Positions 8,658 to 37,932 are shown, numbered from the stretch's first letter. The stretch is DNA of 37,932 nucleotides from a virus (IMGVR_UViG_3300009506_000100:1-37932); one strand, 5' to 3'. Notes: generated by a model from the letters alone, not told the origin. Program-made: numbers and translations.

Positions 8658-9070
8658 CAGCTGATGAAGTAATCGCCGCAGCAAGGGAATGCATAGGCAC
8701 ACCATTCATGCATCAGGGCAGAGTCGTTGGGCGTGGTCTTGACTGTGTGGGTGTGGTGATCCATGTTGCTCGTCGTTTGAATTTGAAGGTCGTGGAGCCT
8801 GCCGGGTATGGTCGTGTACCAGCCAGAGGCATGCTGGAAAACGCGTTCGATTCACATGCCTGTGTTGAGCGTGTGGGTATAGCCGACATGCAGCCGGGTG
8901 ATATCCCGATGTTGCGATTTGGTCGTGACCATCAGCACGTTGGGGTTTTTACCGGCGATACGCTGATTCATGGATATGAGGGGGTCGGATTCGTCTGCGA
9001 GCACAGGATAGACGAAGAGTGGCGCAGCCGCATTAGCCGTGTGTATAGATTCATCGGGGTTGTTCCATGA
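8654..9070 (+). CDS. NlpC/P60-family cell-wall peptidase, tail-associated (RcGTA gp14-like), 138 aa
   Basis: Catalytic Cys context GRGLDCVGVV and a downstream His in HQHVGVF. Position between the hub and the host-specificity protein matches GTA-like tails. Confidence 0.75.
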   Translation: MTADEVIAAARECIGTPFMHQGRVVGRGLDCVGVVIHVARRLNLKVVEPAGYGRVPARGMLENAFDSHACVERVGIADMQPGDIPMLRFGRDHQHVGVFTGDTLIHGYEGVGFVCEHRIDEEWRSRISRVYRFIGVVP

Positions 9071-12000
9071 GCCTTGGTCAGGGATTAGGTGGTGTAGTAG
9101 GCGCAGTTGCCGGGTTCTTTATTGGCGGTCCCGTTGGCGCGTTGTATGGTGCGCAGATCGGCATAACTGCCGGTGGCATCATCGATCCTCCAAAGGGTCC
9201 GACTCTTGTAGGCCCGCGCCTTAATGACTTATCCGCGCAGACGTCAACATATGGCGCAACGCAACCCCGTAATTACGGGTCGTCTGCGCAACTCGGCAAC
9301 GTCTTTTGGTTGCAGGGCGATAAGCTTGAGGAAGTGGCCACCACAACAACCAGCGGCGGCAAGGGTGGTGGGGGCGGCACAAAGAGCACCACGTACAGTT
9401 ATTACGCTACTTTTGCTGTTGGGTTATGCAAGGGTCCGATCGACGGGGTGCGTCGCATCTGGATTGGTAATCAGTTGTGGTATGATGCAGGCAGTGACGA
9501 CATCGCGACCATCATTGCAAGCAATGAGAATGCAGGCTCGTCGTCACCGTGGGGGGCTGCCATAGGGCTTTTTACAAGTCTCATCACCACAGTTGCAACG
9601 AAGAATTACAACCCGGCCAAATTTAAGTTGTACACAGGCACCGACACCCAAGAGCCGGACCCGGCTATTCAGGCTGATCGTGGTGTTGCTAATGTGCCGG
9701 GGTACCGTGGACTTGCATATTTAGTATTCTATCGCCTTCCGTTGGAAAAGTGGTCAAACAGTCTAGTCGCCGCGCAGGTGAAGGTTGAAATCGTAAAGAA
9801 TGGTACGATAAGCTACGTCATCACCAACCTCGGGTCCATTGCTGCGGGCAACCACACGACTACGAGTGGCCCTTGGTCCCTTGCCGTACAAGCATCTCGC
9901 GCATACGTGGTCAACATCTATGACAACACGCTTGAAGCGTTCGATATCTCTGACCCATCGCACATGCGTTCGATCAAAAAGGTATCAACCGGTAATGCTC
10001 CAACGGTGGTGAGGGTGATGGGCAACTACGCCTATGTCTGTATATACAACAGCCTGCTGCAGATTTTCGACCTTAACGCAGATTCGCTAACTTTGGTTGG
10101 GCAGGTCAATACCGCAGTCGGCGGTGAACAGATGGACGTTGCGCGGATAGGTAATTTCACGTACGCGTTTGTGGGCGGCATCGTCGGCGGCTCTGGTTCT
10201 TTTCTGAAGATTTATGATGTAACTGACCCGACGTCCCCAATGCTGCTTAAGACGATCGCTTTGGGTAGCGGTATCTCGTACCCTCAGGGTAATGAGATCA
10301 GGTGCACGAACGGATACCTGTATGTAACGTCGACGTATCTTTTAGAAGTGTTTGATGTGTCGGTACCAGCCAACGCTTACCTCGTAGGCAGTCTCGCTCT
10401 GACAGGGAACCCCATGGGGATGGACGTCGGCGCTAATTACGCGTACATCTTGGATTATGGTGGGCAAATCCAGATCGTCGACATTTCTAACCCGGCGTCG
10501 CCATCCATCATCTCATCGGTTGCGACGTCTGGCAGTTGCCGTAAGCTCACGGTAGTTGGCGGGTACGCTTACGCGGTCAGTGCTACCACGGACGTTGTGG
10601 AGGTTTTTGACGTATCGAATCCACTCTCACCGTTCTTGGCTCAAACGGCACCGACCCTGTCTACCACGCCGTGGGACGTGTTCTCCTTTGACGGGTTCAT
10701 CTTCTACGTGACGATTGGCGGTTATCTTGAAGTGGCGTTCTTCTCGGGTAAGAAGATCACCGGCAACAGTGTGCAACTTTCCACCATCGTACAGGCAGAA
10801 TGCCTGCTGAGTAACTTAATCACTGCAGCCGATATCGATGTCACGGAGTTGACCGACCAAGTACGCGGTTATCGCATCGGGAGTGTCGGTGCTATACGCG
10901 CAGCACTGGACCCGCTCCGGGCTGCTTGGCCGTTTGATGTAGTGCCCGATGGTTACAAGATTAAGTTCAAACGGCGCGGGTCCGCTTCCGTGGCGACGAT
11001 CACCGAGAATGAGTTGGGCGCACGCGCTGCCGGCGAATCGCCTGCAGTGCGCGTAACTGAAAGTCGGGAGATGGACAGTGTGCTGCCCGGAAAAGTTGTT
11101 ATCTCGTACTCCGACGTTACGCGTGAATACGACGTTAACCAGCAGCAATACGAGCGCATCAACACCGACGCCATCAACGAGCGCGTCGTCGAGATGCCTA
11201 TTTCGCTAGTGGCAACCGAAGCGGCGAATATCGCGCAATCGCTCATGTACCTGTACTGGCTCGAACGCTACGATGTGTCGCTCAAGCTCCCACCATCTTA
11301 CTCAAGATTGCAGCCGGGTGATGTCATAACGGTGACAACTTCGAAGGCCAACTACGAGCTACGCCTGACTAGCACCAACTTGTTGCCCGATGGCCGTATA
11401 AACGTGGACGGCAAGTTAAATCAGGCGGCAATCTACACACCAACTGCGGCTGGTGAGGAAGGGCAGTCCACCGGGGGTGTGTTGGCGTTGGCCGGACCGA
11501 CCGTGTATCAGATACTTGATATGCCGCTATTGCGCGATGATGATGACACTGCTGGATTCTCGGTGGCGATGACCGGTGTGCTGACCGGCTGGCCGGGTGG
11601 GATTCTTTATCGCAGCGACGATTCTGGTCAGACATGGGTCGATATTGCGGCTGCGATAAGCCCCGGTGCAATCATGGGCTACACCACGAACAGCATCGGT
11701 GCTGCGGGCAGTGGGGTGTATGACTCGGCGTCAGTGCTCAATGTGAAGTTGTATCAGGGGGCACTTGCATCAGTCACTGATGACCAGCTGTTTGCCGGGC
11801 AGAACTGGTTTGCTTATGGTGCGCACGGGCGTTGGGAAATCGTCGCGGCAAGAACCGCAACACTGAAGATAGACGGGACGTTCGATTTGCAGGACTTCCT
11901 GCGCGGCCAACGTGGGACCGAATGGGCATCCGGGCTGCATCAAGCGGGTGATGTTCTGGTGCTGCTATCTGCCGCTGATTTGCAATTCGTTAGCGTCAAT

Positions 12001-12441
12001 AGTTCTACTATCGGCGCGTCGCGTGCCTATCGCGGCATCACAAGTGGGAAGTCGATGAACAGTGACTCCGACTTGAACCTTGCGTACGAGGGCGTCAACC
12101 TTGAGTGCCTCAGTCCCGTGCACTTGACGGGCAACCGGCACCCGACTACAAACGACTGGACGCTGTCATGGGTGCGGCGCAGCCGTTTTGACCAGTGGCG
12201 CGACTATGTGGACGAGCCGCTTGGGGAGGCGTCTGAGTCGTACGAAATCGACGTCTTCACTGACGGCACGTACACGACTGTGAAACGTACGCTTACCGCA
12301 TCCGCCCCGACTGTCACGTACACCAGCGCTGACCAAGTCACCGACTTTGGTAGCAACCAAACTACGTTGTACGTCAAAGTTTATCAGCTATCGGCCACTG
12401 TTGGTCGTGGCTACCCTCTAACGCAATCTATCACAAGGTGA
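9067..12441 (+). CDS. Host-specificity / central tail fibre protein (RcGTA gp15-like), 1124 aa, with an inserted seven-repeat LVIVD-type beta-propeller
   Basis: The N-terminal region (GGKGGGGGTKSTTYSYYATFAVGLCKGPIDGVRRIWIGNQLWYD, GYRGLAYLVF) and the later LSTIVQAECLLSNL...IDVTEL...VRGYRI...DPLRAAWPFDVV are typical of this family. Residues ~247-568 form repeats of the type NYAYV...LxIxDxSxPxxP. Confidence 0.8.
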   Translation: MSLGQGLGGVVGAVAGFFIGGPVGALYGAQIGITAGGIIDPPKGPTLVGPRLNDLSAQTSTYGATQPRNYGSSAQLGNVFWLQGDKLEEVATTTTSGGKGGGGGTKSTTYSYYATFAVGLCKGPIDGVRRIWIGNQLWYDAGSDDIATIIASNENAGSSSPWGAAIGLFTSLITTVATKNYNPAKFKLYTGTDTQEPDPAIQADRGVANVPGYRGLAYLVFYRLPLEKWSNSLVAAQVKVEIVKNGTISYVITNLGSIAAGNHTTTSGPWSLAVQASRAYVVNIYDNTLEAFDISDPSHMRSIKKVSTGNAPTVVRVMGNYAYVCIYNSLLQIFDLNADSLTLVGQVNTAVGGEQMDVARIGNFTYAFVGGIVGGSGSFLKIYDVTDPTSPMLLKTIALGSGISYPQGNEIRCTNGYLYVTSTYLLEVFDVSVPANAYLVGSLALTGNPMGMDVGANYAYILDYGGQIQIVDISNPASPSIISSVATSGSCRKLTVVGGYAYAVSATTDVVEVFDVSNPLSPFLAQTAPTLSTTPWDVFSFDGFIFYVTIGGYLEVAFFSGKKITGNSVQLSTIVQAECLLSNLITAADIDVTELTDQVRGYRIGSVGAIRAALDPLRAAWPFDVVPDGYKIKFKRRGSASVATITENELGARAAGESPAVRVTESREMDSVLPGKVVISYSDVTREYDVNQQQYERINTDAINERVVEMPISLVATEAANIAQSLMYLYWLERYDVSLKLPPSYSRLQPGDVITVTTSKANYELRLTSTNLLPDGRINVDGKLNQAAIYTPTAAGEEGQSTGGVLALAGPTVYQILDMPLLRDDDDTAGFSVAMTGVLTGWPGGILYRSDDSGQTWVDIAAAISPGAIMGYTTNSIGAAGSGVYDSASVLNVKLYQGALASVTDDQLFAGQNWFAYGAHGRWEIVAARTATLKIDGTFDLQDFLRGQRGTEWASGLHQAGDVLVLLSAADLQFVSVNSSTIGASRAYRGITSGKSMNSDSDLNLAYEGVNLECLSPVHLTGNRHPTTNDWTLSWVRRSRFDQWRDYVDEPLGEASESYEIDVFTDGTYTTVKRTLTASAPTVTYTSADQVTDFGSNQTTLYVKVYQLSATVGRGYPLTQSITR

Positions 12442-13411: not shown

Positions 13412-13587
13412 AAGACATCATCAAGCGCGAAACGCTGGGGTGGGTTGTTGCGCTGCTCATACTCGGCATGCTCCTGACGGCTATCGTGGACGTTGTGCAG
13501 GTTGCGTATCTCATCAGGCACGAGAACGCAATCGAAGCGCTGGAGCAGGGATATGCGGCGCACGAAGCAAGGGAGTCTGCTAAATGA
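13393..13587 (+). CDS. Small membrane protein (64 aa, one TM). Holin, antiholin or i-spanin-like candidate.
   Basis: ATG at 13393 after GAGGTGACGAG. TM segment LGWVVALLILGMLLTAIVDVV. ATGA overlap with the lysozyme start. Only this C-terminal part of the 175-aa track ORF (13060-13587) is plausible. Confidence 0.55.
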   Translation: MDWKQIKDIIKRETLGWVVALLILGMLLTAIVDVVQVAYLIRHENAIEALEQGYAAHEARESAK

Positions 13588-14636
13588 ACGCCCGCGACTT
13601 GGTCAAGCAATCCGAAGGCCTGAGGTACAAGGCTTATCGCGACTCGCGGGGTGTGTGGACTATCGGCTATGGCCACACCAAGGGCGTTGCTGAAGGGGAC
13701 ACGTGCACCAAGGAGCAAGCCGAATTATGGCTCGATGCCGACCTTGCATCCGCGTTCATGTTAATTGATCAGGTGGTGTCTTCGCCGCTGACCACCCAGC
13801 AGCGTGATGCGCTGGCTAGTTTTGTGTTCAACGTTGGACCGGGCTTGAAAGGAGATAACGACGGATTTTTGGTACTTAAGTCTGGGAAGCCGAGCACGAT
13901 CCTGCTGAAGTTAAACGCAGGCGACATGTTTGGTGCCGCAGACGAGTTGTTGAAGTGGACACGCGCAGGTAGCACCCACCCAGCTGGCTTGGTGGTCAGG
14001 CGCAAGCGGGAACGCGCATTGTTCCTGTCCGGCACCGACATCAATCCGGACCCTATTCCCACTCAGGAGGATAACGACATGGCACCATTTCTCATGGCAG
14101 CAATCCCGGCACTCATTCAGGAGTTGCCCAACTTCGCAAAGATTTTTCAGAATAAGGACGTCGCCGAGCGCAACGTTGAAGCAGTGACCAAGGCAGCGGA
14201 CATCATCGTTAAGTCGGTCCCCGGCGCGTCAAACCTACAGGATGCGGTCGAGAAAATCCAGACCGACCCTGAAGCGAAAGACGCGGCTAATGAAGCCGTG
14301 AAGATGAGCACGGCTGATCTGCTCGACGTCATCGAGCGCGTGAGTGCGATCGACCAGAAGAGCATCGACAGCGCCCGTGTGTTCAACGCTGGTGAACCGC
14401 TCATGATCAACAGCAAGCGCATCCAGATGAAGTTCTGGCATGTGCTCGCGCTGTTTGTCACCGTCGCGTTCCTTGTCGCAGTCGTGGTAGTCGCGGTCAA
14501 GTCGACCAACGAGGGCGAACGCATGATGATGTTTCAGGCGTTGATCGGCTCCTACCTGCTGATCATGGGCTTCGTGTTCGGGTCCAGCACCGGCAGCAAG
14601 GTGAAGGACTTCATGCGTGGCGGGCCACAGCCATGA
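13584..14636 (+). CDS. Endolysin: N-terminal GH24 (T4/lambda-type) lysozyme fused to a ~190-aa C-terminal region that ends in two TM helices (350 aa)
   Basis: GH24 catalytic pattern QSEGLRYKAYRDSRGVWTIGYGHT (Glu, Asp, Thr), plus QQRDALASFVFNVGPG. C-terminal hydrophobic helices FWHVLALFVTVAFLVAVVVVAV and MMMFQALIGSYLLIMGFVFGSS. Confidence 0.85.
   Translation: MNARDLVKQSEGLRYKAYRDSRGVWTIGYGHTKGVAEGDTCTKEQAELWLDADLASAFMLIDQVVSSPLTTQQRDALASFVFNVGPGLKGDNDGFLVLKSGKPSTILLKLNAGDMFGAADELLKWTRAGSTHPAGLVVRRKRERALFLSGTDINPDPIPTQEDNDMAPFLMAAIPALIQELPNFAKIFQNKDVAERNVEAVTKAADIIVKSVPGASNLQDAVEKIQTDPEAKDAANEAVKMSTADLLDVIERVSAIDQKSIDSARVFNAGEPLMINSKRIQMKFWHVLALFVTVAFLVAVVVVAVKSTNEGERMMMFQALIGSYLLIMGFVFGSSTGSKVKDFMRGGPQP
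14079..14636 (+). CDS. Possible in-frame internal translation product of the endolysin gene: membrane domain only, 185 aa, holin-like candidate
   Basis: A perfect AGGAGG at 14065-14070 lies 8 nt upstream of the in-frame ATG at 14079, at the boundary between the lysozyme domain and the C-terminal region. Confidence 0.3.
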   Translation: MAPFLMAAIPALIQELPNFAKIFQNKDVAERNVEAVTKAADIIVKSVPGASNLQDAVEKIQTDPEAKDAANEAVKMSTADLLDVIERVSAIDQKSIDSARVFNAGEPLMINSKRIQMKFWHVLALFVTVAFLVAVVVVAVKSTNEGERMMMFQALIGSYLLIMGFVFGSSTGSKVKDFMRGGPQP

Positions 14637-14974
14637 CGTACGAATACAGGCATGTTGGCGTGGTCCATGTCGTCGACGGTGATACCGTGAAGCTGATCGT
14701 CGACATGGGCAACAAAATCCGGTGGACTGAGAACTTCCGCTTGTTCGGGATCGATACACCCGAGCGGGGGCAGGTCAACCACGATGAGGCTACCGACTAT
14801 CTAAACAAGCTGTTGTCGAATGGGGTCACGCGGATCGTGACCTATAAGCCGGATAAGTATGGCAGGTGGCTCGTCGACATATGGGTTGCCATCGATGGCG
14901 GGGAGCTTCACGCAAATCACGCGATGGTCGTGGAAGGATTTGCCAAGGAGTATTTCGGCGGGAAGAAGGGCTAG
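14633..14974 (+). CDS. Staphylococcal-nuclease (SNase / thermonuclease)-like nuclease, 113 aa
   Basis: SNase pattern VVDGDTVKL ... FRLFGIDTPE ... DKYGRWLVDI ... NHAMVVEGFAKEY. ATGA overlap with the endolysin stop. Confidence 0.75.
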   Translation: MTYEYRHVGVVHVVDGDTVKLIVDMGNKIRWTENFRLFGIDTPERGQVNHDEATDYLNKLLSNGVTRIVTYKPDKYGRWLVDIWVAIDGGELHANHAMVVEGFAKEYFGGKKG

Positions 14975-14988
14975 CGCCTCTGGTGTGT

Positions 14989-15162
14989 TCATGGCATCAC
15001 CATCCACAGCTTAACAGCGATACCGATCGTGAGGAAAAACACACCCAAGATCAGCGATAACCCTAGCAGATGCCACCAGTGGTCCTCCTTAACCTTCATT
15101 GCCGTGAGATAGACAGCACCGTATGCGGCGCTAACCGTGAGTATGAAACCGATAGACGTCAT
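14989..15162 (-). CDS. Small two-TM membrane protein (57 aa), below the ORF-track cutoff
   Basis: Hand translation gives MTSIGFILTVSAAYGAVYLTAMKVKEDHWWHLLGLSLILGVFFLTIGIAVKLWMVMP. Its ATG overlaps the upstream stop (ATGA at 15159-15162). Confidence 0.5.
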   Translation of the reverse strand: MTSIGFILTVSAAYGAVYLTAMKVKEDHWWHLLGLSLILGVFFLTIGIAVKLWMVMP

Positions 15163-15620
15163 GATCTTCCCCTTCGTTGTGATTTGACCGGGGAGCTATG
15201 AGTATAGCTCCCTCCCCGTTTGACAACCTCCGTGATGGCACGACACAAGCCGGAGACGTCCTCGTAGACCAGCGCTCGGCTCGCCGCATCCGCCCACGGC
15301 AAATCCCTCGACTCCGCCAAGCTGCTCCACCTCCATAAGAAGTGGGCGTTGGGGGTGCCTATCCACAAGTAACAATGCCCCGACCCTTTGCTGCCGCGCT
15401 GTATGAGCCAATCCTGCTGCCCGTGCGTGTAGTGCTTGATCGCATTCAACGACTTTGGTATCTTCTCGCAGTACTTTATTTCGATCCAGCCGTCCGCACG
15501 GTGTGCGCTGAACGACAGGTCGGGTATGAAGTTCTGCACTGAGTCCTCGTGTTGCTGAGTCTTCCAGCCCAGCCCGCGCAGCAGGTCGGCTACTTCGTGT
15601 TTGTACTCCAGTTCTGTCAT
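15159..15620 (-). CDS. VRR-NUC / PD-(D/E)XK nuclease (153 aa)
   Basis: Motif NFIPDLSF ... DGWIEIKY ... HGQQDWL matches the PD...(D/E)xK core and the VRR-NUC pattern. ATGA overlap with the upstream gene. VRR-NUC genes often co-occur with phage SNF2 helicases. Confidence 0.7.
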   Translation of the reverse strand: MTELEYKHEVADLLRGLGWKTQQHEDSVQNFIPDLSFSAHRADGWIEIKYCEKIPKSLNAIKHYTHGQQDWLIQRGSKGSGHCYLWIGTPNAHFLWRWSSLAESRDLPWADAASRALVYEDVSGLCRAITEVVKRGGSYTHSSPVKSQRRGRS

Positions 15621-16192
15621 GGCGGGGTGAGCCTCTCCGACTGGTTCACAAACGGAAGCCCCAAATCCATCAGCACCGGATTCGCAGTGTCATATGCCTC
15701 GTGTTCGTGCACGAAGTCCTCCACTGCCCGCCAGCACTTATCCGCCACAGTTCTAGCATGGTGGCCAGCGCCATTCTCCCCGATCCACCATGCCGCCTCG
15801 ATCAGATCGGCCAACTTGATCAAGTTGCGTTCCACTCCGGACAAGCTGCGACCCGGCGACGGTGTCAAATACGGAAGGTTTGGCATGATGTCGGCATCCA
15901 TGCTGTGGAAGATATCGACCACCTCATCCGGATTCTGGCGGCTGCGTATGAACGACTTACCCGGCGTGGGTATGTCGCCATACCTGATTTCGGGGGAATC
16001 GTGGAACATCAGCGCAGTCATGAAGTGCGCGGACGGCTCACCCAACATAGCCCGCTTAAACAATTCCAGCCCGATCACCGTCACGTTGTACTGGTGCTCC
16101 GCAAGGTTCTGCTCCTTGGTGGTGTTTATGATGGTCCACCGCTTGATGTGGCTGGTGCGGGCCAGTTCGTAGAAGCTTAGCTCTTTGCTCAT
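15617..16192 (-). CDS. datZ: HD-domain phosphohydrolase, YfbR-like. Candidate DatZ (dATP triphosphohydrolase).
   Basis: Motifs HIKRW, NLAEHQYNV and LMFHDSPEIRYGDIPTPGK match the YfbR-like HD pattern. Third gene of the purZ operon, joined by ATGA overlaps on both sides. Confidence 0.65.
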   Translation of the reverse strand: MSKELSFYELARTSHIKRWTIINTTKEQNLAEHQYNVTVIGLELFKRAMLGEPSAHFMTALMFHDSPEIRYGDIPTPGKSFIRSRQNPDEVVDIFHSMDADIMPNLPYLTPSPGRSLSGVERNLIKLADLIEAAWWIGENGAGHHARTVADKCWRAVEDFVHEHEAYDTANPVLMDLGLPFVNQSERLTPP

Positions 16193-16620
16193 AACGCCCG
16201 CCCTCCATGATCGTCCTGTGTGCCGTGCTGCTCAAGACACGCATGTAGCACAGCGATGGTCTGCACGATTTCACTGCGCACCGAGTTGCGGTCAGTGCCG
16301 CCCTTGATCACAGCCTGCTTAGCCTCCGCAAGCTCGGCCTCGGCGATGAGAATCCATTCCGCGATGGAGTGCGGGGATTGCTCGATGCTGCCCCACTTGG
16401 AGTCTTGGAAGTTGCGCTCTACCTGAATGGCGGCACGCACATCAGCAATACGCTGGCGCTGCTTCAGAGCCTTGGCCTGCTCACTTATCTGCTTGCGTAT
16501 GTTGTGCCCGGTAAGCGCTTGGCGCAGATCGTCCGCGCCGAGTGGACACTTGTGGTCGGAAGTCAGGGTGCCTCCGCACCGCTGGCACCGACCAAAAACT
16601 GCTGTGTTTTGCACGTCCAT
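16189..16620 (-). CDS. mazZ: MazG-like all-alpha NTP pyrophosphohydrolase with an N-terminal Cys-rich (zinc-ribbon-like) segment. Candidate MazZ.
   Basis: FQDSKWG...HSIAEWILIAEAELAEAKQAV...VRSEIVQTIAVLHACLE resembles phage MazG-like / dATP-dGTP diphosphohydrolase families. N-terminal CQRCGG...HKCP. The ATG at 16620 follows AAGGGGGA. The TTG start at 16671 in the track would overlap purZ. Confidence 0.55.
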   Translation of the reverse strand: MDVQNTAVFGRCQRCGGTLTSDHKCPLGADDLRQALTGHNIRKQISEQAKALKQRQRIADVRAAIQVERNFQDSKWGSIEQSPHSIAEWILIAEAELAEAKQAVIKGGTDRNSVRSEIVQTIAVLHACLEQHGTQDDHGGRAL

Positions 16621-16621
16621 C

Positions 16622-17677
16622 TCAATCCCCCTTAGTAGTGAAAACGTCGTTGTGGGAAGCACCCCAGCCAAGCATGGTCAACTCAGCGCCAGTGTTGCTG
16701 ATGATGCGCTCATAGTCGTGCAGCCGCAGCGCATTCTCATCCTCGTCGCGCTCGATGTAGTTGACGAAGTTTAGAAACACCTCGTCGACTCCGTTCATGC
16801 GCACGGCATCGGCGATCTGCTGTGGCGAGAACGTGAAAATGCGTCGCGGCAGTTGAGTCACCGTGGTAAGTTCTGGCTCCATTCCGAGTTGGCTCCACTC
16901 GATCTCGCGCTGGTCGTCGTAGCACGGGCCAGAGGTGCCGACCTGTACACCGTCCTTGTAACGATTGGCGACGCGGATCGGGTAGGTGCGTGCGCAGCCG
17001 TAGACGCGGGTGTTCCTGCTCTGAGCGAATGCACGTGGGATCGCACAATCGGACAGTAGCTGGTGCGTTGTACAATCACGGCTGGTGGTGTACGGATAAA
17101 AGCCCTGATTTATCGACAGCGAGAATCCCTGTGCGCCCTCCAGCAACAACTTGTTTGCGGAGTCGAGCGCGCTGTTATAGTCGTCTGCCGACGCCAGCAG
17201 TGCTTCCAGTGGCGTGCCCACCAACACATCGCGTGCGATAATGCTGGCATCCGGATCGCGCTTAATCTTTTCGATGACTGCGGCACCCACACCCTTCATC
17301 GTGCTGCCGATCTTGAACATAGACTCGGATTCAGCCAAGCGATGACCGGCACTCACTACGGCTGCGTTCTCGTGGATGAAAATCTGCACCCCGTCGAGAT
17401 ACTCGATGTAATCGTTAAGCTCATTCCACAGGTTGTCGATGTCGATCACCGAGCCGGGACCGATCAAAATGCGGCGCAGGTTGGGGGACACGATGCCGTT
17501 GGGTAGTGCGCAGTTAACGAACTTCTTGCCGTTGGAATCGATGTACGTGTGGCCAGCGTTCGGACTCCATGCGATAGCGATCGTGTCATATGCGTGCTTC
17601 TCGGCCAGATACCCGGCCAGCAGCCCTTTACCCGTGCTGCCGTATTGCAGATCGGTGATGATGTCGAATCTCTTCAT
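16622..17677 (-). CDS. purZ: Adenylosuccinate-synthetase homologue of the PurZ type (predicted N6-succino-2-amino-2'-deoxyadenylate synthase), 351 aa
   Basis: PurA signatures are kept: SPNAGHTY, IGSTMKGVGAAVIEKI, EGAQGFSLSINQGFYPYTTS. The P-loop reads QYGSTGKG instead of the PurA GDEGKGK. The protein is ~80 aa shorter than cellular PurA and sits next to MazG-like, HD and PolA genes. Confidence 0.8.
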   Translation of the reverse strand: MKRFDIITDLQYGSTGKGLLAGYLAEKHAYDTIAIAWSPNAGHTYIDSNGKKFVNCALPNGIVSPNLRRILIGPGSVIDIDNLWNELNDYIEYLDGVQIFIHENAAVVSAGHRLAESESMFKIGSTMKGVGAAVIEKIKRDPDASIIARDVLVGTPLEALLASADDYNSALDSANKLLLEGAQGFSLSINQGFYPYTTSRDCTTHQLLSDCAIPRAFAQSRNTRVYGCARTYPIRVANRYKDGVQVGTSGPCYDDQREIEWSQLGMEPELTTVTQLPRRIFTFSPQQIADAVRMNGVDEVFLNFVNYIERDEDENALRLHDYERIISNTGAELTMLGWGASHNDVFTTKGD

Positions 17678-17763
17678 TGCTTCTCTCCTTTGGTGATGAC
17701 GATTGGCGGTATAAACGGGACATAGCCAGCCATAGCCAGCGATGCGTACAGCAGTGTCGGCAT
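17674..17763 (-). CDS. Possible 29-aa hydrophobic leader peptide overlapping the purZ start
   Basis: Hand translation gives MPTLLYASLAMAGYVPFIPPIVITKGEKQ. Its TGA overlaps the purZ ATG. The SD-like AAGGAGAG lies ~15 nt upstream, which is a long spacing. Confidence 0.2.
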   Translation of the reverse strand: MPTLLYASLAMAGYVPFIPPIVITKGEKQ

Positions 17764-17811
17764 GATAACTTTCAATTCACTCTCCTTGTGCGTATGTTGT
17801 CTGATGCGGCC

Positions 17812-17840
17812 AGTGTATCACACCGGCACGCACCAGTCCA
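17812..17840 (-). promoter_or_regulatory. Sigma70-like promoter candidate for the purZ operon (TGGACT-N17-TACACT on the minus strand)
   Basis: The + strand shows AGTGTA (17812-17817) and AGTCCA (17835-17840) exactly 17 nt apart. The same hexamer pair recurs at 23374-23402 and 27935-27963. Confidence 0.45.
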
Positions 17841-17851
17841 GCATGTTTTTA

Positions 17852-18034
17852 TCAAATAATCCCCTTCCACACCAGCACAGCGGCCAGTATAACAAGTACC
17901 ACGAACAGTGCGGCCCCTCCCCAAAATGGGGCGGTGACCCACCACCAAGACCAGTTAATGTATCCGGTCAATTTAAGTGTAACAAACACTACGCCGAGTA
18001 AACCAACCGTACTGATAGAACTACTATTAGCCAT
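17852..18034 (-). CDS. Small two-TM membrane protein (60 aa)
   Basis: The ATG at 18034 follows AAGGAGAGG. Sequence MANSSSISTVGLLGVVFVTLKLTGYINWSWWWVTAPFWGGAALFVVLVILAAVLVWKGII. The longer track ORF would overlap the SSB gene. Confidence 0.55.
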   Translation of the reverse strand: MANSSSISTVGLLGVVFVTLKLTGYINWSWWWVTAPFWGGAALFVVLVILAAVLVWKGII

Positions 18035-18044
18035 GATCCTCTCC

Positions 18045-18326
18045 TTAAAACGGGATATCATCATCCATTTCGTCGAATCCGCTGCTGGTGGGTCTGGGGT
18101 TGTTGGCCGCGCCACGCTGCGCACGCGTCGCGGGCTGTTGCTCCTTCAATTGGAACGACAACGACAAAAATGCCTCGCCGGTCGTCCTGTTCTTCTGCTT
18201 CCACCCGCTGATCCAGTACTCCACACCCTCAATCTCACATTTGCCACTGTAGTCGGGTTGTGCGTCCTTTTCCTTGCGCTTGTTGGTGCCGAGGGTGCCT
18301 CGCATGTTGTTGTCGTACTGTGCCAT
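18045..18326 (-). CDS. Single-stranded DNA-binding protein (short, 93 aa)
   Basis: Acidic C-terminal tail FDEMDDDIPF, typical of bacterial and phage SSBs. The ATG at 18326 follows AAGGAG. Lies immediately downstream of the polymerase gene. Confidence 0.6.
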   Translation of the reverse strand: MAQYDNNMRGTLGTNKRKEKDAQPDYSGKCEIEGVEYWISGWKQKNRTTGEAFLSLSFQLKEQQPATRAQRGAANNPRPTSSGFDEMDDDIPF

Positions 18327-18345
18327 TGCTATTGCTCCTTGAGTG

Positions 18346-20205
18346 CTATTTGCTTGCTTCGAACCAATTCGGCCCAACTTCGACCGACGACTTGATGGGT
18401 ACGCGCAGCCTGATAGGACAACGCTCACCATCGAAAACTTCTAACACCTCCTTCACCATGCCAGATTGTCTGGCAGACTCCGACTTTCGCATGGAGAAGT
18501 CCAACTCATCGTGCACGGACAGCAGCATTCCAATGCCTTCACTCTGGCACACAGGCCAGAGTTCTACCATCTTCTGCTTCATGCAGTCCGCACTCGATCC
18601 CTGAAATACAAGGCCACCCGCCTTATGCGTGTACTTGCCACCGGGGAAGCGGATATGCCGCCCCATGATGGTCTTCACATAACCGCGTGATTTGGCGATA
18701 GCCGACGCCTCACTCAGTAGCTTGGATACGCCCGGAATCGCACCGTGGTATGTGCCGAAAATCTCCTCGGCCTTGGGTCCAGCGTTGAACCACTCGCGGC
18801 CATCGGTGCCGTAACGTACCGTATAATCAAGTCCCATCTCGTACGCCATCTTACCCTTACCCATACCAAACACTAGACCAAGGTTTATCTGCTTCGCGTT
18901 GGCGTCACCCGCGAATCGCGGTTTGCGCGGAATACCAGTAAGGTTGGACACGATCTGGTGATAGTCGGTATCAGGGTCGTCCGCGTATGCCTTTAGAATG
19001 TTGGGGTCTTTAGTGTAATGGGCGAACATGCGAAACTCCATCTGCGCCCAATCCGCGCAGCACCAGTCGTGCCCGTCCTCGGGTATGAAGCATGAGCGCA
19101 CGATAGCTGCGATGTCAACGTCCCGCGCTGGAATCTGCTGCAGCGCCGGGTCATTGATGGAGAATCGGCCAGTGCCGGTGCCTAGGTCGTTGTCGCCGCG
19201 TGTCTGATTGTAGTTTGGGTAGACGCGCCCGCCCACAGCGTGCGCGATGATGTGGTCCTTCAGGAACGAATTCGCCTTCGTCATCTTGCGCAGTTGTAAC
19301 ACCTGCTTGGCCCGCGCATCACCCTGCTCGGACATGATAACTAGCGTATCCTTACCAAGTGATGGCCCATCCGAATCGGTCATCGGCAACAGGAACCCCG
19401 AATCGGTGCGCCATTCGAAGCCCTTCGGATTGTCGGCGTCGCACTTCTTCACCTTGAACAGTTCACGCATCTGCTTGGGCGAGTTTGCGTTCATGACGGC
19501 ACCAGCCAGTTTGTCTAGTGCGCGTTGTGCCTCGTCAATCTTGCGGGCGACGTCCTTCATGGAGCCGTGCGCACGCTGTTCGTCCACGCGCACCCCCTGA
19601 CGCTCAATGTGGCACAGGATCGGCGTTACTCGCTTTTCCAGCGACCACACCTGCCCCAACTCTTGACGTTTGATCTCTTCCTCCTGCCACAACCACAGCT
19701 TGATAGCGAGCACGGGGTCTTCGATTGCGTACTTCCCGGCCAACGACTCTGGCGCACGATGCAGGTTGGGCATTTGTGCCTCGCGTGTGGGCTTGCCACC
19801 AAACATCGCCGCCAGTTCCGCGTAGATGTCGACCTTTGACACGTTCAGGTACTTGCGCGACAATGAGTCCAGACTGAAGGAGCGCTCGTGCTCGTTGATA
19901 AGTGCGGAGCGAACGCTGGTGCACTCGATGGAGTCGTCCGACACACGCACACCTTTGTTCATCAGGAAGTTTACGTCGAACTTGATGTTGTGGTTTACCA
20001 GCCGTTTGATCAGCGGCACCTCAGTGCGCAGCATCTCGACCACACGCGTCTTGCTGCGGATGTCGAAATAGCCGGACACGATCTTCTCACCGTCATAAGC
20101 AGCGACAGCGATCCCGAACACATCGTCCTTGTACCAGTGAAGTCCAGTAGTTTCAGTGTCGATCGAAACTATTGGGTACTCGTGCAGCCTTGCAAGATTC
20201 AGCAT
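18346..20205 (-). CDS. Family A DNA polymerase with 3'-5' proofreading exonuclease (619 aa). Candidate DpoZ-type polymerase.
   Basis: Exo motifs: VSIDTETTGL, NHNIKFDVNFL, YAIEDPVLA. Pol motifs: A DWAQMEFRMFAHY, B AKQINLGLVFGMGKG, C LSVHDEL. The ATG at 20205 follows GGGGG. The track start at 20235 is a TTG that overlaps the helicase gene. Confidence 0.9.
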   Translation of the reverse strand: MLNLARLHEYPIVSIDTETTGLHWYKDDVFGIAVAAYDGEKIVSGYFDIRSKTRVVEMLRTEVPLIKRLVNHNIKFDVNFLMNKGVRVSDDSIECTSVRSALINEHERSFSLDSLSRKYLNVSKVDIYAELAAMFGGKPTREAQMPNLHRAPESLAGKYAIEDPVLAIKLWLWQEEEIKRQELGQVWSLEKRVTPILCHIERQGVRVDEQRAHGSMKDVARKIDEAQRALDKLAGAVMNANSPKQMRELFKVKKCDADNPKGFEWRTDSGFLLPMTDSDGPSLGKDTLVIMSEQGDARAKQVLQLRKMTKANSFLKDHIIAHAVGGRVYPNYNQTRGDNDLGTGTGRFSINDPALQQIPARDVDIAAIVRSCFIPEDGHDWCCADWAQMEFRMFAHYTKDPNILKAYADDPDTDYHQIVSNLTGIPRKPRFAGDANAKQINLGLVFGMGKGKMAYEMGLDYTVRYGTDGREWFNAGPKAEEIFGTYHGAIPGVSKLLSEASAIAKSRGYVKTIMGRHIRFPGGKYTHKAGGLVFQGSSADCMKQKMVELWPVCQSEGIGMLLSVHDELDFSMRKSESARQSGMVKEVLEVFDGERCPIRLRVPIKSSVEVGPNWFEASK

Positions 20206-20206
20206 G

Positions 20207-21499
20207 TCAACCCCCAATGATGGACGGTGGTTCAAATAGTGGGTTGCCTCCGCTCAGGATCAACTCGTCTGAGGTGCGCGTCAGAGCCACGTACAGGACG
20301 CGCAGTTCGGCATCACGATCGTTGTATATCCCGGACAGCACGCGTGTGGGCAGGTTCAGGTCGACTACAACGCGTCGATGCTCACGCCCCTTGGCCTGAT
20401 GGATCGTCGACAGCTGCACCTCGATCGGCTTGTTCAGGTCCGCTTGGGCGTAGAACTCGCGCAGGTGGATCGGAATCTCGGGCTTGCCGCCCTCGCGCAA
20501 CTCACGAGCGATCCTGCTCGTCCACGGGCTGACGCCACCCATCACCGAGTAAGGGACCATGGCCCGATTCAGATCGCGTTTTATGTCGGCGAGCCGAGCG
20601 CGATCACGCGCCAGCACGAGTGCTCCACCATCGGCGGCGATTCGCTGCAGGTCGATGTAGTGAAAGTCGTTGTATGTCGTGATGTTACCCACGGCATTGC
20701 GCGGATAGAACTGCTTCCGTACCCTGCGCCCGATCTGGGCCAACGCGACATCATGGGCAAGGTCGTGCACCATGCGCGGTACCCGATGCGACTGGCGTAA
20801 GATGTGTAACTCGCCCTCCGTGGCCTGCATGAAGTCAAGCATGCCGTGGGGGTCGGCACCATTCCACTCGTAGATCGCTTGGTCGTCATCGCCAGCGATC
20901 ACCACCTCGCATTGCTCTGGCAGCAGGGTGCGGAGCACCACCCACTGCAGCGGCGAGCAGTCCTGTGCTTCATCTAGGAACACACGCTTGTACTGCGACA
21001 GATCGCCCCGCTTTGCCCACTCCTTGAGCATGTCATCAAAGTCAACGTACCCGTATGCGGCTTTCCAGTCCTCATACGCACTGGCGAAGAACGTGAACCT
21101 GCGCATGGTCCCCGGTCTGCCGAAGTGGTCGTACGCCTCCATATGGCCTATCGACCTGTTGTTTGCGTACGCTACGACTGCCGCGTATTCATCACCCTCT
21201 TGCTGTTCCTCCTCTGACCCAGATTCGCTACCGCGCATCGGTACCCCGGCCATCTCAGCAAAAGACTTAAGTTTGGCTGCGTCTACCACTTGCGCCCGAG
21301 TCAGGCCAAGTTGGTGAAACGCTAGTGAATGCATGGTTGAGGCTGTGATGCCTTCATTCCCCTTGATCCGGGACTTCATCTCCAGTGCTGCCGCCTTGGT
21401 ATATGACAGAAGCAGGGTATCCTTCCTCCCCTCTGCCAGATCGACCAGCGTTCTCGTTTTCCCGGTGCCGGGGGGACCAAATATGGCTGAAACCTTCAT
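20207..21499 (-). CDS. Superfamily 1 (UvrD/Rep-like) DNA helicase, 430 aa
   Basis: Walker A GPPGTGKT, motif II FLDEAQD, and C-terminal STIHQAKGRE and LYVALTRT. Confidence 0.85.
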   Translation of the reverse strand: MKVSAIFGPPGTGKTRTLVDLAEGRKDTLLLSYTKAAALEMKSRIKGNEGITASTMHSLAFHQLGLTRAQVVDAAKLKSFAEMAGVPMRGSESGSEEEQQEGDEYAAVVAYANNRSIGHMEAYDHFGRPGTMRRFTFFASAYEDWKAAYGYVDFDDMLKEWAKRGDLSQYKRVFLDEAQDCSPLQWVVLRTLLPEQCEVVIAGDDDQAIYEWNGADPHGMLDFMQATEGELHILRQSHRVPRMVHDLAHDVALAQIGRRVRKQFYPRNAVGNITTYNDFHYIDLQRIAADGGALVLARDRARLADIKRDLNRAMVPYSVMGGVSPWTSRIARELREGGKPEIPIHLREFYAQADLNKPIEVQLSTIHQAKGREHRRVVVDLNLPTRVLSGIYNDRDAELRVLYVALTRTSDELILSGGNPLFEPPSIIGG

Positions 21500-21621: not shown

Positions 21622-22452
21622 TTACATCTCGTGATCCCGGTCAGGCGCACCCCCCTGCGATACGTCTGTTTCGTAATCGGTGACGTCCATCGTCACCTTG
21701 CGCCCGGACTCCATCAGGCTGTACAGGCTTTCGGCCTTGTCGTACACTGGCTTCGACACATAGCCCAGCTGCTTAACCGTGTAGTTGAAGTAGTCGTCAC
21801 CGGCTTTGTTCTTCTCCAGTGCGGTCCCAATCTGGTAGGCACGGGAAAAGCGATCACCACCAGCCATGCGCACCAGCGAGTTCCACTGACGCGATACCTT
21901 AGCCTTGGTGCGCGGCATCGACACCATGACTTCGTTAATGGTGCCGTCCTTGAAGTTCAGCAACAGACACAGGTGCTGCGGGGTGTCCAGCACTTCGATG
22001 CTCCCGGGAGCGATGCCCTTGTCGCGAATCTCCTGCTCAACGCGGGCTTCCGCTTCAGCGGGGGAGTTGAATGCGCCAAAGAAACCGCCCTCACCCTTCT
22101 GTTCCCGCCCCTTCGAATCGACCCACTTGCGCTTGCCCCATACGAGCCATTGCTTGATGAAGACCACCGGCACCACTGCGACGTCCTTGCCGTACAACTC
22201 ACCAGTAACGGAGTTCACAAGCATACCGGCGCGTGCGTCCTCGTTGAACTTGGGGTCGCCCTGTTTGACTTGGGGTGACAGCGCCTGCACAATCTCCAGC
22301 CGGGGAATAACGAGGTCTTCCTGCCCGACGTTTTCAGAGCCACGCTGCTGCCCCTGCTTGATGTGATCGGGAACCTGACCCTCTTCGCCAAACACCATCA
22401 TGCTCTGCTTGTTAGCATCAACAGTCGTCATTTCAGTTTGCTTCTTTGCCAT
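21622..22452 (-). CDS. Hypothetical protein (276 aa) in the replication/recombination module
   Basis: ATG after AAGGAAG. Contains DLVIPRLEIVQALSPQ. No family assigned with confidence; an ssDNA-binding or annealing role is only a guess from position. Confidence 0.7.
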   Translation of the reverse strand: MAKKQTEMTTVDANKQSMMVFGEEGQVPDHIKQGQQRGSENVGQEDLVIPRLEIVQALSPQVKQGDPKFNEDARAGMLVNSVTGELYGKDVAVVPVVFIKQWLVWGKRKWVDSKGREQKGEGGFFGAFNSPAEAEARVEQEIRDKGIAPGSIEVLDTPQHLCLLLNFKDGTINEVMVSMPRTKAKVSRQWNSLVRMAGGDRFSRAYQIGTALEKNKAGDDYFNYTVKQLGYVSKPVYDKAESLYSLMESGRKVTMDVTDYETDVSQGGAPDRDHEM

Positions 22453-22507
22453 TGCTTCTTCCTTTCAGTTTGATTAAACGAGGATAAGCCATCCTCCGGG
22501 CTACTGC

Positions 22508-22981
22508 TCACTTCACCTTCGTGATCGATGCCCGTGTAAACGGGATCACACGCAAGTATTCCTCGGGTACGGGTTTGCCCTCCTTCATGCGGTTCTTAAC
22601 GAACGCCTTCAGTGTGCTGGCGTTGATAGTCGGCTGAATGAGGTCTTGAAAGCCATTTTCATGCAGCCATGCAAACAACCCGGCCTTGTCGGTGGCCGAC
22701 ACCAGCATATCGGCAGTCAGACCCACGCGACCGATACCGTCAAACGTGATACGCTCGATGCCGTCATCATCCATCTTGGCCGGGATGACTTCAGTGCGCA
22801 GCACATCGAACTTCGCATTGACGATGGCTAATTGCGCCTCTAGGTCATCCTTCTCGGAGCGCAATAGCTTCATGTGCTCGACCATGGAAAACAGCGTCAT
22901 GGTCTTGTATTCCTCGCGTGCCGCTGCCTTGGCCTTGTTGAACGCGCTGCTCTGCTGATCGTCGTTGTCATCACTGCTCAT
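22508..22981 (-). CDS. Hypothetical protein (157 aa) with an acidic N-terminus and a coiled-coil segment
   Basis: ATG ORF overlapping the upstream gene by 11 nt. Resemblance to Gp157-like phage proteins is weak and unverified. Confidence 0.65.
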   Translation of the reverse strand: MSSDDNDDQQSSAFNKAKAAAREEYKTMTLFSMVEHMKLLRSEKDDLEAQLAIVNAKFDVLRTEVIPAKMDDDGIERITFDGIGRVGLTADMLVSATDKAGLFAWLHENGFQDLIQPTINASTLKAFVKNRMKEGKPVPEEYLRVIPFTRASITKVK

Positions 22982-23306
22982 AGGTCTGTCCTCTCATGTC
23001 TATGTACGCCGGGATATAAGTAAAGGTGCGGTTGTCCCAGCGCAATACGTTCACACCCTTGATGCCTTTGGCACCGAGCATCATGAACACCAGTGCCGAC
23101 ACATAAGGCGAACCGGCGATCACGATGTAGTCGTTGTCGGCATCAAACTCGCGCAGGCCGCGAGCAATGTGCGCAACAAGCTTTTCATTATGCAGCGATC
23201 CCCTGATGTTGCTCAGGTCTTCGCGTGCAAGGAAACGCACTTCACCAAACTGCTCGGCTGGTACGAAGTTCAGGTTTATCTCCTGCGTTACCCATACAGT
23301 GCTCAT
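22971..23306 (-). CDS. Hypothetical protein (111 aa)
   Basis: The ATG at 23306 follows a strong AAGGAGG. The longer track start at 23432 would overlap the SNF2 gene and the promoter candidate. Confidence 0.65.
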   Translation of the reverse strand: MSTVWVTQEINLNFVPAEQFGEVRFLAREDLSNIRGSLHNEKLVAHIARGLREFDADNDYIVIAGSPYVSALVFMMLGAKGIKGVNVLRWDNRTFTYIPAYIDMRGQTYEQ

Positions 23307-23373
23307 GTCTGTACCTCCTTTCAACCGGCTATCCCGCAGGTAGGTTTCCCGGCTATCGTCTGATCTAGTCTCT

Positions 23374-23402
23374 AGTGTACCACAGGGGGCGGCTTCAGTC
23401 CA
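23374..23402 (-). promoter_or_regulatory. Sigma70-like promoter candidate (TGGACT-N17-TACACT on the minus strand)
   Basis: AGTGTA at 23374-23379 and AGTCCA at 23397-23402 on the + strand, with a 17-nt spacer. Shares CTGTGGTACACTA with the 27935 copy. Confidence 0.45.
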
Positions 23403-37193: not shown

Positions 37194-37932
37194 ATGAAAC
37201 TCAGTATTCAAGAACTTCGCGAAAAGCGTGCAGCCGTTGCAACCAAGGCGCGTGCCCTGCTGGAAGACAACAAAGAGAAGTGGACTTCTGCCAACAATGA
37301 ACAGTACGACCAGTTCATGGCGGAAATCGACGACATCGATGGTCAGATCAGCCGCATCAATGCCCTGCACGATCGTTTGGCCGAAGATGACCTCAACGGC
37401 CAGCTGTCCAACTCGGTCGATCGTGCCACCAGCCGTCTGCCCACCGACGCCAAGAACAAGGCCAAGGCTTTGTACAACAAGTGGCTGCGCGGGGGCGATT
37501 CGGCCATCACTGCAGAAGAATGGGCAGACATCCGTGCAACGATGTCCACCACGACTCCTGCCGAAGGCGGTTACACGGTGCAAACCGAAGTTGCTGCGAT
37601 GCTGATCGACGCACTGAAGGCTTATGGCGGCATGCGTGCCGTTGCTGAAGTGATTCAGACTGCAATGGGCAACTCGATGTCGTTCCCCACTTCCGATGGC
37701 ACCACCGAAACCGGCGAACTCATCGCGGAAAACACGACTGCCACTGCCGCTGATCCGACGTTCGGCACCGTTGGCCTGAACGTCTACAAGTTCAGTTCCA
37801 AAGTGGTCGCGGTCCCGTTCGAACTGCTGCAGGATTCCGAGATCGACGTCGAAGCCTTCATCCAGCGTCGCCTAGTGCAGCGTCTTGGCCGAGTGACCAA
37901 CACGTACTTCACCACTGGTACTGGCACTGCGC
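37194..37932 (+). CDS. Major capsid protein, HK97 fold: N-terminal part including the coiled-coil delta domain. It runs off the window end and continues at nt 145 through the overlap.
   Basis: The ATG at 37194 lies 6 nt after AGGAG. Hand translation: MKLSIQELREKRAAVATKARALLEDNKEKW...ATMSTTTPAEGGYTVQTEVAAMLIDALKAYGGMRAV... The frame is open to the end of the window. Confidence 0.9.
   Translation, partial: MKLSIQELREKRAAVATKARALLEDNKEKWTSANNEQYDQFMAEIDDIDGQISRINALHDRLAEDDLNGQLSNSVDRATSRLPTDAKNKAKALYNKWLRGGDSAITAEEWADIRATMSTTTPAEGGYTVQTEVAAMLIDALKAYGGMRAVAEVIQTAMGNSMSFPTSDGTTETGELIAENTTATAADPTFGTVGLNVYKFSSKVVAVPFELLQDSEIDVEAFIQRRLVQRLGRVTNTYFTTGTGTA
37789..37932. repeat. Terminal assembly overlap, copy 2 (identical to 1-144)
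   Basis: See copy 1. Confidence 0.95.

Follow-up and report, generated by a model that had tools for sequence, protein, structure and literature searches.

Cyanophage S-2L, Vibrio phage PhiVC8 and Acinetobacter phage SH-Ab 15497, experimentally verified Z-phages with 2-aminoadenine (Z) in place of adenine (A), carry both PurZ and DatZ. In the known Z-clusters, mazZ is always located between datZ and purZ and occurs in two variants (MazZ-1, of the DUF550 family, and MazZ-2; PMC8342488). DutZ and DUF5664 proteins have been recruited independently for the same chemistry, which constitutes a case of functional convergence (PMC12884076). Published surveys of Z-clusters have relied on Pfam and two custom hidden Markov models (HMMs) applied to NCBI viral genomes. 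Here we describe a Z-cluster in the viral sequence IMGVR_UViG_3300009506_000100:1-37932, a stretch of 37,932 nucleotides (hereafter the window), in which purZ and datZ flank a gene of an unannotated family, designated gene X. The Z-DNA pathway is already known, and another PurZ phage would be ordinary by itself. What is new is a clade carrying PurZ, DatZ and the polymerase DpoZ without a recognized dGTP/dATP pyrophosphohydrolase, in which the corresponding slot is occupied by a family with no annotation, Pfam model or solved structure. We place the probability of the overall explanation, namely Z-genome machinery with gene X in the MazZ slot, at roughly 0.8.

The genes of the cluster all lie on the minus strand, as determined from a table of open reading frames (ORFs) and direct reading of the junctions. 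The purZ gene (16622-17677; 351 aa) is followed by gene X (16189-16620; 143 aa from its ATG) and by datZ (15617-16192; 191 aa), which encodes a predicted HD-domain dATP triphosphohydrolase. At 16618-16624 (TGAgATG), a single base separates the purZ stop from the start of gene X; the three next junctions are overlaps of the ATGA type (16189-16192, 15617-15620 and 15159-15162). Recognizable ribosome-binding sites precede purZ (aaaggagag), gene X, datZ and the small genes of the unit. An earlier note on the window had given these gene coordinates and the near-gapless junctions at 16622/16620, 16189-16192 and 15617-15620 correctly, and had rightly placed a family A polymerase gene 0.7 kb from the cluster (its end lies 669 nt ahead of the purZ start). 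It had also stated that the same trio as in known Z-phages lies here, which holds for PurZ and DatZ but not for the middle gene.

Gene X is excluded, by sequence and profile comparison, from the MazZ-1 (DUF550), MazZ-2 and DUF5664 families. It has no Pfam match to PF04447 (DUF550/MazZ), PF18909 (DUF5664), MazG, MazG-like, PRA-PH or dUTPase models at E<=10, in a scan in which S-2L MazZ and the corresponding proteins of SH-Ab 15497 and VLCpiS6a readily matched those models as positive controls. Nothing significant was recovered from NCBIfam at E<=1, or by BLASTP against S-2L MazZ (E 4.5), SH-Ab 15497 gp40 and PhiVC8 p26. Sequence and profile searches of the PDB, using gene X alone and alignments of 31 and 144 sequences, returned chance matches only (e.g. 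BCL7 and GldL) and not MazZ (7ODY). In profile-profile comparison with hhalign, the 31- and 144-sequence profiles reach probabilities of 0.2-0.3% against MazZ-1 and 0.1-0.3% against MazZ-2, the 144-sequence alignment 0.1-0.2% against two single DUF5664 domains, and a 97-sequence alignment 0.9% against a 13-sequence DUF5664 profile; the power of this test is low, given that MazZ-1 and MazZ-2 reach just 10% against each other. The earlier note had taken the middle gene for MazZ, a MazG-like all-alpha nucleoside triphosphate (NTP) pyrophosphohydrolase. The all-alpha character agrees with the three-helix structure predicted below, whereas the enzymatic identity is not borne out, as neither sequence nor profile comparison links the protein to MazZ, MazG or DUF550.

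The family to which gene X belongs is large and unannotated. In PHROGs, gene X matches phrog_2831 alone, a family of unknown function, and the gene is unmentioned in the searchable literature. A tblastn search of 50,697 phage genomes with gene X yielded nothing even at E 10, and a more typical family member matched one uncultured phage in the same set. An exhaustive profile search recovered 2,723 clusters at 50% identity (E<=1e-3). Among 144 sampled members, 133 match phrog_2831, none has a Pfam domain on the family core, and occasional fusions to helix-turn-helix (HTH), zinc-ribbon, Lar and HNH modules are found. Pantoea phage AAS21 gp039 is a true member of the family (hhalign 98%); it has no Pfam match, and its depositors gave it the label of putative NTP pyrophosphohydrolase.

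Genomic context bears on the role of gene X. All close homologues on readable contigs (nine proteins, the most divergent at 44-45% identity) directly follow a PurZ homologue, an HD/YfbR-like gene comes after X wherever those contigs extend, and a helicase and PolA are usually found upstream. More than 10 contigs preserve the order PurZ-X-DatZ; two more distant family members reside in unrelated contexts. We also surveyed the best 80 of 451 IMG/VR PurZ loci, classifying middle genes with local HMMs. The middle gene is DUF550 (MazZ-1) in 70/80 loci (10 of these with DUF5664), DUF5664 alone in three and X in seven, while X together with DUF550 or DUF5664 occurs in none. Relative to the point where the PurZ match ends, the ORF that holds X always starts within a range from 258 nt before to 4 nt after, and a DatZ match lies beside it. 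Fisher's exact test gives p = 3e-10 for the exclusivity of X, a value that takes no account of shared ancestry. In a rough neighbour-joining PurZ tree, 12 of 13 X-bearing loci, including this phage, form one clade adjoining S-2L, and this clade was found in metagenomic contigs only. In this tree, which has no support values, the PurZ of the X-bearing locus L047 (IMGVR_UViG_3300037461_000393) is placed away from the main X clade and together with a DUF550-bearing locus; its placement hints at a second acquisition or an exchange of the middle gene. Three further loci (L073, L077 and L095) encode PurZ, then a stand-alone DUF5664 protein with no DUF550 within 4 kb, then DatZ.

A second gene for MazZ, Dut or NDT elsewhere in the genome was considered and rejected, as the genome is complete and the HMM and Pfam surveys are negative. 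Positions 1-145 recur exactly at 37788-37932, and this 145-nt terminal repeat indicates that the window represents a complete, circularly assembled genome of ~37,787 bp, from an uncultured tailed phage. HMMs for MazZ-1, MazZ-2 and DUF5664 find no match in its six-frame translation. The MazG, dUTPase and NDT Pfam families are absent among the matches listed (25/34 families; 46 other ORFs), where a weak match may be hidden. Gene X is probably a non-orthologous replacement of MazZ.

Close homologues of gene X are 90-140 aa long and cover its C-terminal ~100 residues. The protein encoded here has a ~37-aa N-terminal extension and a ~90-aa three-helix core. The extension (16510-16620, residues 1-37) is zinc-ribbon-like, with Cys12-x2-Cys15...His23-x-Cys25, and shows a sub-threshold match to Pfam DUF2688 and low confidence (predicted local distance difference test, pLDDT) in structural models. 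The homologues P0023, P0025 and P0027 bear different Cys-rich N-terminal extensions. An internal start, which would make the extension spurious, was rejected: a ribosome-binding site precedes the ATG, which lies 1 nt past the purZ stop, such tight coupling is usual in relatives, and these three homologues have Cys-rich extensions of their own. The near-invariant residues of the family are E68, R69, Q72, K75, G77, W89, E96, E99, A100, E117, Q120, A127 and G133. Conserved polar residues run along all three helices. The near-invariant positions make up a motif of E96-x-x-E99, 17 residues and E117-x-x-Q120, together with a conserved ER..Q..KWG helix, and E68 supplies a fourth conserved acidic residue.

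AlphaFold2 models the core as three helices with a pLDDT of 94.6 and a predicted template-modelling score of 0.84 (pLDDT 86.1 for the full-length model). When the trimmed core was predicted anew with more aligned sequences, model confidence rose, yet Foldseek matches gained no significance. The PDB matches with the lowest root-mean-square deviation are iMazG (2Q73), AF_0060 (2P06), DCTPP1, AF1178 and HisN2, none of them significant (E 0.7 or higher); for AF_0060, TM-scores are 0.64/0.70 over 82/84 residues. Of the top 50 matches in the viral structure library BFVD, at least 10 carry an NTP pyrophosphatase, MazG-like or DUF5664 annotation (E 0.02-2), and NTP pyrophosphatase is the sole recurrent functional annotation among these weak structural neighbours. 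The BFVD neighbours include Pantoea phage AAS21 gp039 and a protein of Ochrobactrum phage vB_OspP_OH, apparently the phage whose MazZ-2 has been discussed previously (PMC8342488). The modelled fold resembles MazG-like proteins only weakly; a MazG-like enzyme would fit this resemblance but is not demonstrated by it.

Taken with position, mutual exclusivity and the conserved acidic residues, this weak resemblance leads us to lean slightly towards gene X being a functional analogue of MazZ. We give about even odds to the more specific proposal that it represents a new class of Z-pathway enzyme ('MazZ-3'), a three-helix, four-glutamate NTP pyrophosphohydrolase that displaced MazZ in one PurZ clade and has no detectable sequence relation to MazG/DUF550, MazZ-2, DUF5664 or Dut. 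Several observations weigh against this reading. No NTP pyrophosphatase resembles gene X significantly in sequence or profile. Its motif is ExxE...ExxQ with a near-invariant Gln, where the canonical motif is ExxE...ExxD (ExxE(12-28)ExxD), and a loop glycine conserved in at least 90% of PurZ-linked homologues (KGGxGRNS) is replaced by Asp110 in the protein encoded here (16291-16293; KGGTDRNS). Foldseek E values exceed 0.02 in BFVD and 0.6 in the PDB, and SemiSWEET and ribosomal protein chains are interleaved among the PDB fold matches. Fusion partners in the wider family are HTH, zinc-ribbon and HNH modules rather than nucleotide-metabolism domains. In addition, the exclusivity seen in the locus survey mostly reflects one clade, and hence few independent events.

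A rival reading is that gene X is not an NTP pyrophosphohydrolase, and that the clade has lost MazZ and draws dGMP from the host pool or from breakdown of host DNA. Gene X might then, for example, regulate or assemble PurZ or DatZ, bind nucleic acid through its zinc-ribbon extension or act in anti-defence. The lack of detectable homology to characterized enzymes, the non-significant fold matches and the Gln in place of the canonical Asp are all in keeping with such a role, as are the fusions of the wider family to HTH, zinc-ribbon, Lar and HNH modules and the distant members outside PurZ contexts. However, the strict MazZ position and translational coupling in every PurZ-linked case, and the finding that X never accompanies DUF550 or DUF5664 in the 80 loci, are harder to reconcile with it. 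The same applies to the near-invariant four Glu, Arg and Lys, a set of charged residues typical of catalytic or ligand-binding sites, and to NTP pyrophosphatase recurring alone among the annotations of structural neighbours. On balance, we regard a gene X without pyrophosphohydrolase activity as unlikely, though it is the main alternative.

The remaining components of the cluster can be assigned with greater certainty. From its sequence, the 351-aa protein is a genuine PurZ, the predicted succino-amino-deoxyadenylate synthase. It scores 337.4 bits against the NCBIfam PurZ model NF038379 (cutoff 300) and at most 135 bits against all NCBIfam PurA models (cutoffs at least 368), and it matches phrog_1211 at 2e-83. 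In the PDB, the PurZ entries 6FM1 (5e-82) and 7ODX (8e-81) far outrank PurA-like chains (6e-28 or weaker), with bit scores of 275-279 for PhiVC8 and S-2L PurZ, 101 for the PurA-like chain 7VF6 and at most 86 for PurA. The P-loop reads QYGSTGKG with Ser14, and mutation of this Ser to the Asp of PurA abolishes PurZ selectivity (bioRxiv 10.1101/2025.10.22.683976). Alignment with four characterized or annotated PurZ proteins shows PurZ-type residues at Y12 (as in S-2L), S14, P233, Y253, W261, G265, T271, F304 and Y307; every position on a published list of discriminating residues is of the PurZ type (bioRxiv 10.1101/2025.10.22.683976). Among cultured phages, the closest relatives do not exceed 53% identity, so that the PurZ described here represents a distinct lineage.

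The 191-aa HD protein is, judged by its residues, a genuine DatZ, including the Trp/Ile pair that selects dATP. It matches YfbR-like/HD_3 Pfam families and phrog_7076 ('dATP triphosphohydrolase'; 1.8e-26), and its top PDB match is S-2L DatZ (6ZPA, 2.6e-13), ahead of YfbR (1.8e-8). S-2L DatZ coordinates metal through H34, H66, D67 and D119 and binds the triphosphate through R19, K81 and K116; specificity is conferred by W20, which excludes the ribose 2'-OH, by I22, which excludes the purine 2-amino group of G and Z, and by P79 (PMC8065100). All 13 catalytic and specificity residues are conserved in the alignment with S-2L DatZ: R18, W19, I21, Q28, A31 and H33 correspond to R19, W20, I22, Q29, A32 and H34 of S-2L, and H64, D65, G72, P77, K79, K126 and D129 to H66, D67, G74, P79, K81, K116 and D119. 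The metal ligands here would accordingly be H33, H64, D65 and D129, with R18, K79 and K126 as triphosphate residues and W19, I21 and P77 as specificity residues.

The neighbouring family A polymerase (dpoZ, 18346-20205, minus strand) belongs by profile to the Z-specific DpoZ clade. It scores 713 bits against NF038380 (phage_DpoZ_1, aminoadenine-incorporating DNA polymerase; cutoff 500) and matches Pfam DNA_pol_A and DNA_pol_A_exo1, the latter representing its 3'-5' exonuclease domain. The top PDB match is 7PBK (4e-127), deposited as 'DNA polymerase I', which we take to be PhiVC8 DpoZ; the Klenow fragment follows at 4e-46. The likely start codon is ATG 20205, although the mechanical ORF begins at TTG 20235.

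Together, PurZ, DatZ and a neighbouring polymerase of the DpoZ clade make a Z-for-A genome likely, and the polymerase assignment in particular strengthens this prediction. We consider it very probable that the three proteins constitute a genuine Z-genome system, a module that is present here in a new, uncultured lineage. The earlier note had recognized the adenylosuccinate-synthetase homologue as PurZ, its YGSTGKG P-loop with Ser for the catalytic Asp of PurA, and a YfbR-like HD phosphohydrolase; each of these stands, the last with its HD motifs and DatZ-type residues, and the PurA-versus-PurZ profile comparison it had proposed favours PurZ. Its forecast of A-to-Z substitution is, as a prediction, strongly supported by the sequences of PurZ, DatZ and DpoZ. 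Two considerations temper this conclusion: most PurZ-based predictions of Z-DNA are without direct proof (PMC13128860), and Z content is not readable from sequence, in which reads report Z as A.

The same scarcity of direct proof among PurZ viruses (PMC13128860) lends itself to the view that the cluster is present in a genome that is partly or not Z-substituted, serving to manipulate nucleotide pools or forming a pathway made leaky by its odd middle gene; the step that would supply dGMP here falls to gene X, a candidate enzyme. Such an arrangement seems improbable in view of the residue-level integrity of PurZ (Ser14) and DatZ (Trp19/Ile21) and a polymerase of the DpoZ clade. The verified Z-phages S-2L, PhiVC8 and SH-Ab 15497 likewise pair PurZ with DatZ. 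Finally, an ordinary PurA-type auxiliary metabolic gene converting inosine monophosphate to adenylosuccinate, as the Pfam adenylosuccinate synthetase match might suggest, is already effectively refuted by the NCBIfam scores, the far better matches to solved PurZ structures, the replacement of the PurA catalytic Asp by Ser14 and the location of the gene between dpoZ and datZ.

From homology with the described pathway (PMC8342488), PurZ would condense dGMP and aspartate into the succinylated dZMP precursor, and host PurB and host kinases would complete the route to dZTP, as for homologues. DatZ would hydrolyse dATP, so that A is excluded, and DpoZ would replicate the genome with dZTP. Judging by its position, its mutual exclusivity with DUF550 and DUF5664, its conserved acidic residues and its weak likeness in fold, gene X may hydrolyse dGTP, and possibly dATP as well, to the monophosphate used by PurZ. 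The chemistry would be carried out by the four-glutamate cluster E68, E96, E99 and E117, plus R69 and K75. If gene X does perform the MazZ function, it would add one more independent solution to the functional convergence of Z-phages, give a family of thousands of dark-matter phage proteins its first link to a function and offer a new, compact part of ~100 aa for the engineering of Z-DNA synthesis. Were the 'MazZ-3' proposal true, the wider family (phrog_2831, ~2,700 clusters, no Pfam model) would form a large unannotated reservoir of nucleotide-pool enzymes. Z-cluster surveys based on Pfam miss the X component.

The cluster reads as the tail of the replication operon. The block that ends in purZ is headed by a UvrD-like helicase (20207-21499, minus; Pfam UvrD-helicase, 3e-26), followed by dpoZ, a gene for a protein resembling single-stranded DNA-binding protein (SSB; 18045-18431, minus; phrog_7364, 4.8e-23) and purZ. 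This helicase-headed order is also found in SH-Ab 15497, VLCpiS6a and metagenomic relatives, and in the two phages SSB genes are located where the SSB-like gene lies here. Between the SSB-like gene and purZ lies a small membrane protein gene (17852-18034, minus), with a likely start at ATG 18034 preceded by the ribosome-binding site taaggagag and a phrog_1374 match (6e-19) to residues 29-87 of the 90-aa ORF. A 29-codon hydrophobic ORF on the minus strand (17674-17763, MPTLLYASLAMAGYVPFIPPIVITKGEKQ), whose TGA overlaps the purZ ATG, may be spurious. The earlier note had proposed a dedicated promoter at 17812-17840. A scan of 14700-18600 for sigma-70-like promoters passes none at a threshold of 9/12 consensus positions, and the proposed site (TGGACT, 17 nt, TACACT, preceded by TG) has 8/12 when read by eye. 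Moreover, purZ abuts the upstream gene in several relatives (a 10-nt gap in L006, no gap in L014), so that a dedicated purZ promoter is not a conserved feature.

Downstream of datZ is a gene for a 153-aa PD-(D/E)xK-motif protein (15159-15620, minus), which looks, from sequence, like a conserved fourth member of the Z-cluster. The earlier note had called it a VRR-NUC nuclease; however, it has no Pfam match at E<=0.01, VRR_NUC included, and no PDB match. Its sole family match is phrog_2165 (1.4e-11), the 'DNA helicase' label of which is a mislabel. The PD...E-x-K motif (IPDL...GWIEIK) aligns with PhiVC8 p23, SH-Ab 15497 gp42, VLCpiS6a gp30 and metagenomic relatives, and a protein of this type, ~140-155 aa, follows datZ in this phage and in each of these (L004 6953-7390, L002 7930-8397 and L001 7653-8078 among the loci). 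The novelty that had been sought in a promoter and in co-transcription with a VRR-NUC nuclease is not supported, given that no promoter passes and that the downstream gene also occurs in PhiVC8, SH-Ab 15497 and VLCpiS6a. The leftward unit ends with a gene for a 57-aa hydrophobic protein (14989-15162, minus), recognized as an ORF with an ATGA overlap, which has no family match in Pfam or PHROGs.

Elsewhere, the genome contains a block of terminase, portal, protease and capsid genes, a tail module like that of gene transfer agents (GTAs) and the leftward replication module. It has no close DNA relative among the 50,697 deposited phage genomes. The major capsid gene crosses the circular junction (capsid match at 15-632). 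A tail protein of 1,124 aa (9067-12441, plus) has the GTA-like domains Phage-tail_3 and Rcc01698_C and, in addition, a region of LVIVD/beta-propeller repeats. An endolysin (13584-14974, plus) has a phage lysozyme domain and a long C-terminal extension ending in hydrophobic segments, and directly after it comes a staphylococcal-nuclease homologue that points towards the Z-cluster operon and converges on its end. The helicase-DpoZ block is immediately preceded by three consecutive minus-strand genes (21622-23432) that match the cyanophage Pam3 gp32, gp33 and gp34 families (PF23992, PF23984 and PF23977), and the same trio lies likewise in the X-bearing relatives L005, L006, L010 and L013. An SNF2-family helicase (23395-25164) adjoins a primase of archaeo-eukaryotic type (25176-26732, minus), the top Pfam match of which is the 'TOTE conflict system' archaeo-eukaryotic primase domain, alongside PriCT_1.

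Among described systems, the locus shares its layout with those of SH-Ab 15497 and the Klebsiella phage VLCpiS6a. In these, all genes between the UvrD-like helicase and the PD-(D/E)xK protein, both included, have the same order and orientation, PurZ is 46-49% identical to the one described here, and the polymerase is of the DpoZ type. They differ in having as middle gene a DUF5664+DUF550 fusion of 294-385 aa, where this phage has an unrelated 143-aa protein with neither domain, and in lacking the small membrane protein between the SSB-like gene and purZ. The cluster of PhiVC8 (purZ, MazZ-2, datZ, p24 and p23) encodes a PurZ 46% identical to that of this phage (5e-82 to solved structures) and presumably, through 7PBK, the best solved relative of its polymerase; in both, a p23-like PD-(D/E)xK gene comes after datZ. 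PhiVC8 MazZ-2 (86 aa; EVxELxEA...IEEAADV, with conserved E47, E50, E62/E63 and D66) has no detectable relation to gene X. S-2L has the same purZ-middle-datZ arrangement with overlapping junctions, a PurZ 45% identical to that here, which lies beside the X-bearing clade in the rough tree, and a fully shared DatZ active site, but uses PrimPol where this phage has DpoZ (PMC8342488; PMC8065100). The X core (~100 aa in close homologues) is near S-2L MazZ in size (105 aa). However, S-2L MazZ has a DUF550/MazG-HisE fold with ExxE...ExxD and two C-terminal strands, whereas gene X has ExxE(17)ExxQ and no profile similarity to it. Like the MazG, HisE, DCTPP1, iMazG and AF_0060 superfamily, gene X is predicted to be small and all-helical, with ExxE on the second core helix facing Exx(Q) on the third; all-alpha NTP pyrophosphohydrolases have four or five core helices and the canonical Asp, compared with three helices and Gln in gene X. 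Precedent for unrelated folds that hydrolyse dATP/dGTP to deoxynucleoside monophosphates is provided by DutZ and DUF5664-1 of PurZ0 phages (PMC12884076). These have different folds and belong to the PurZ0 subgroup, whereas gene X is tied to PurZ proper and DatZ.

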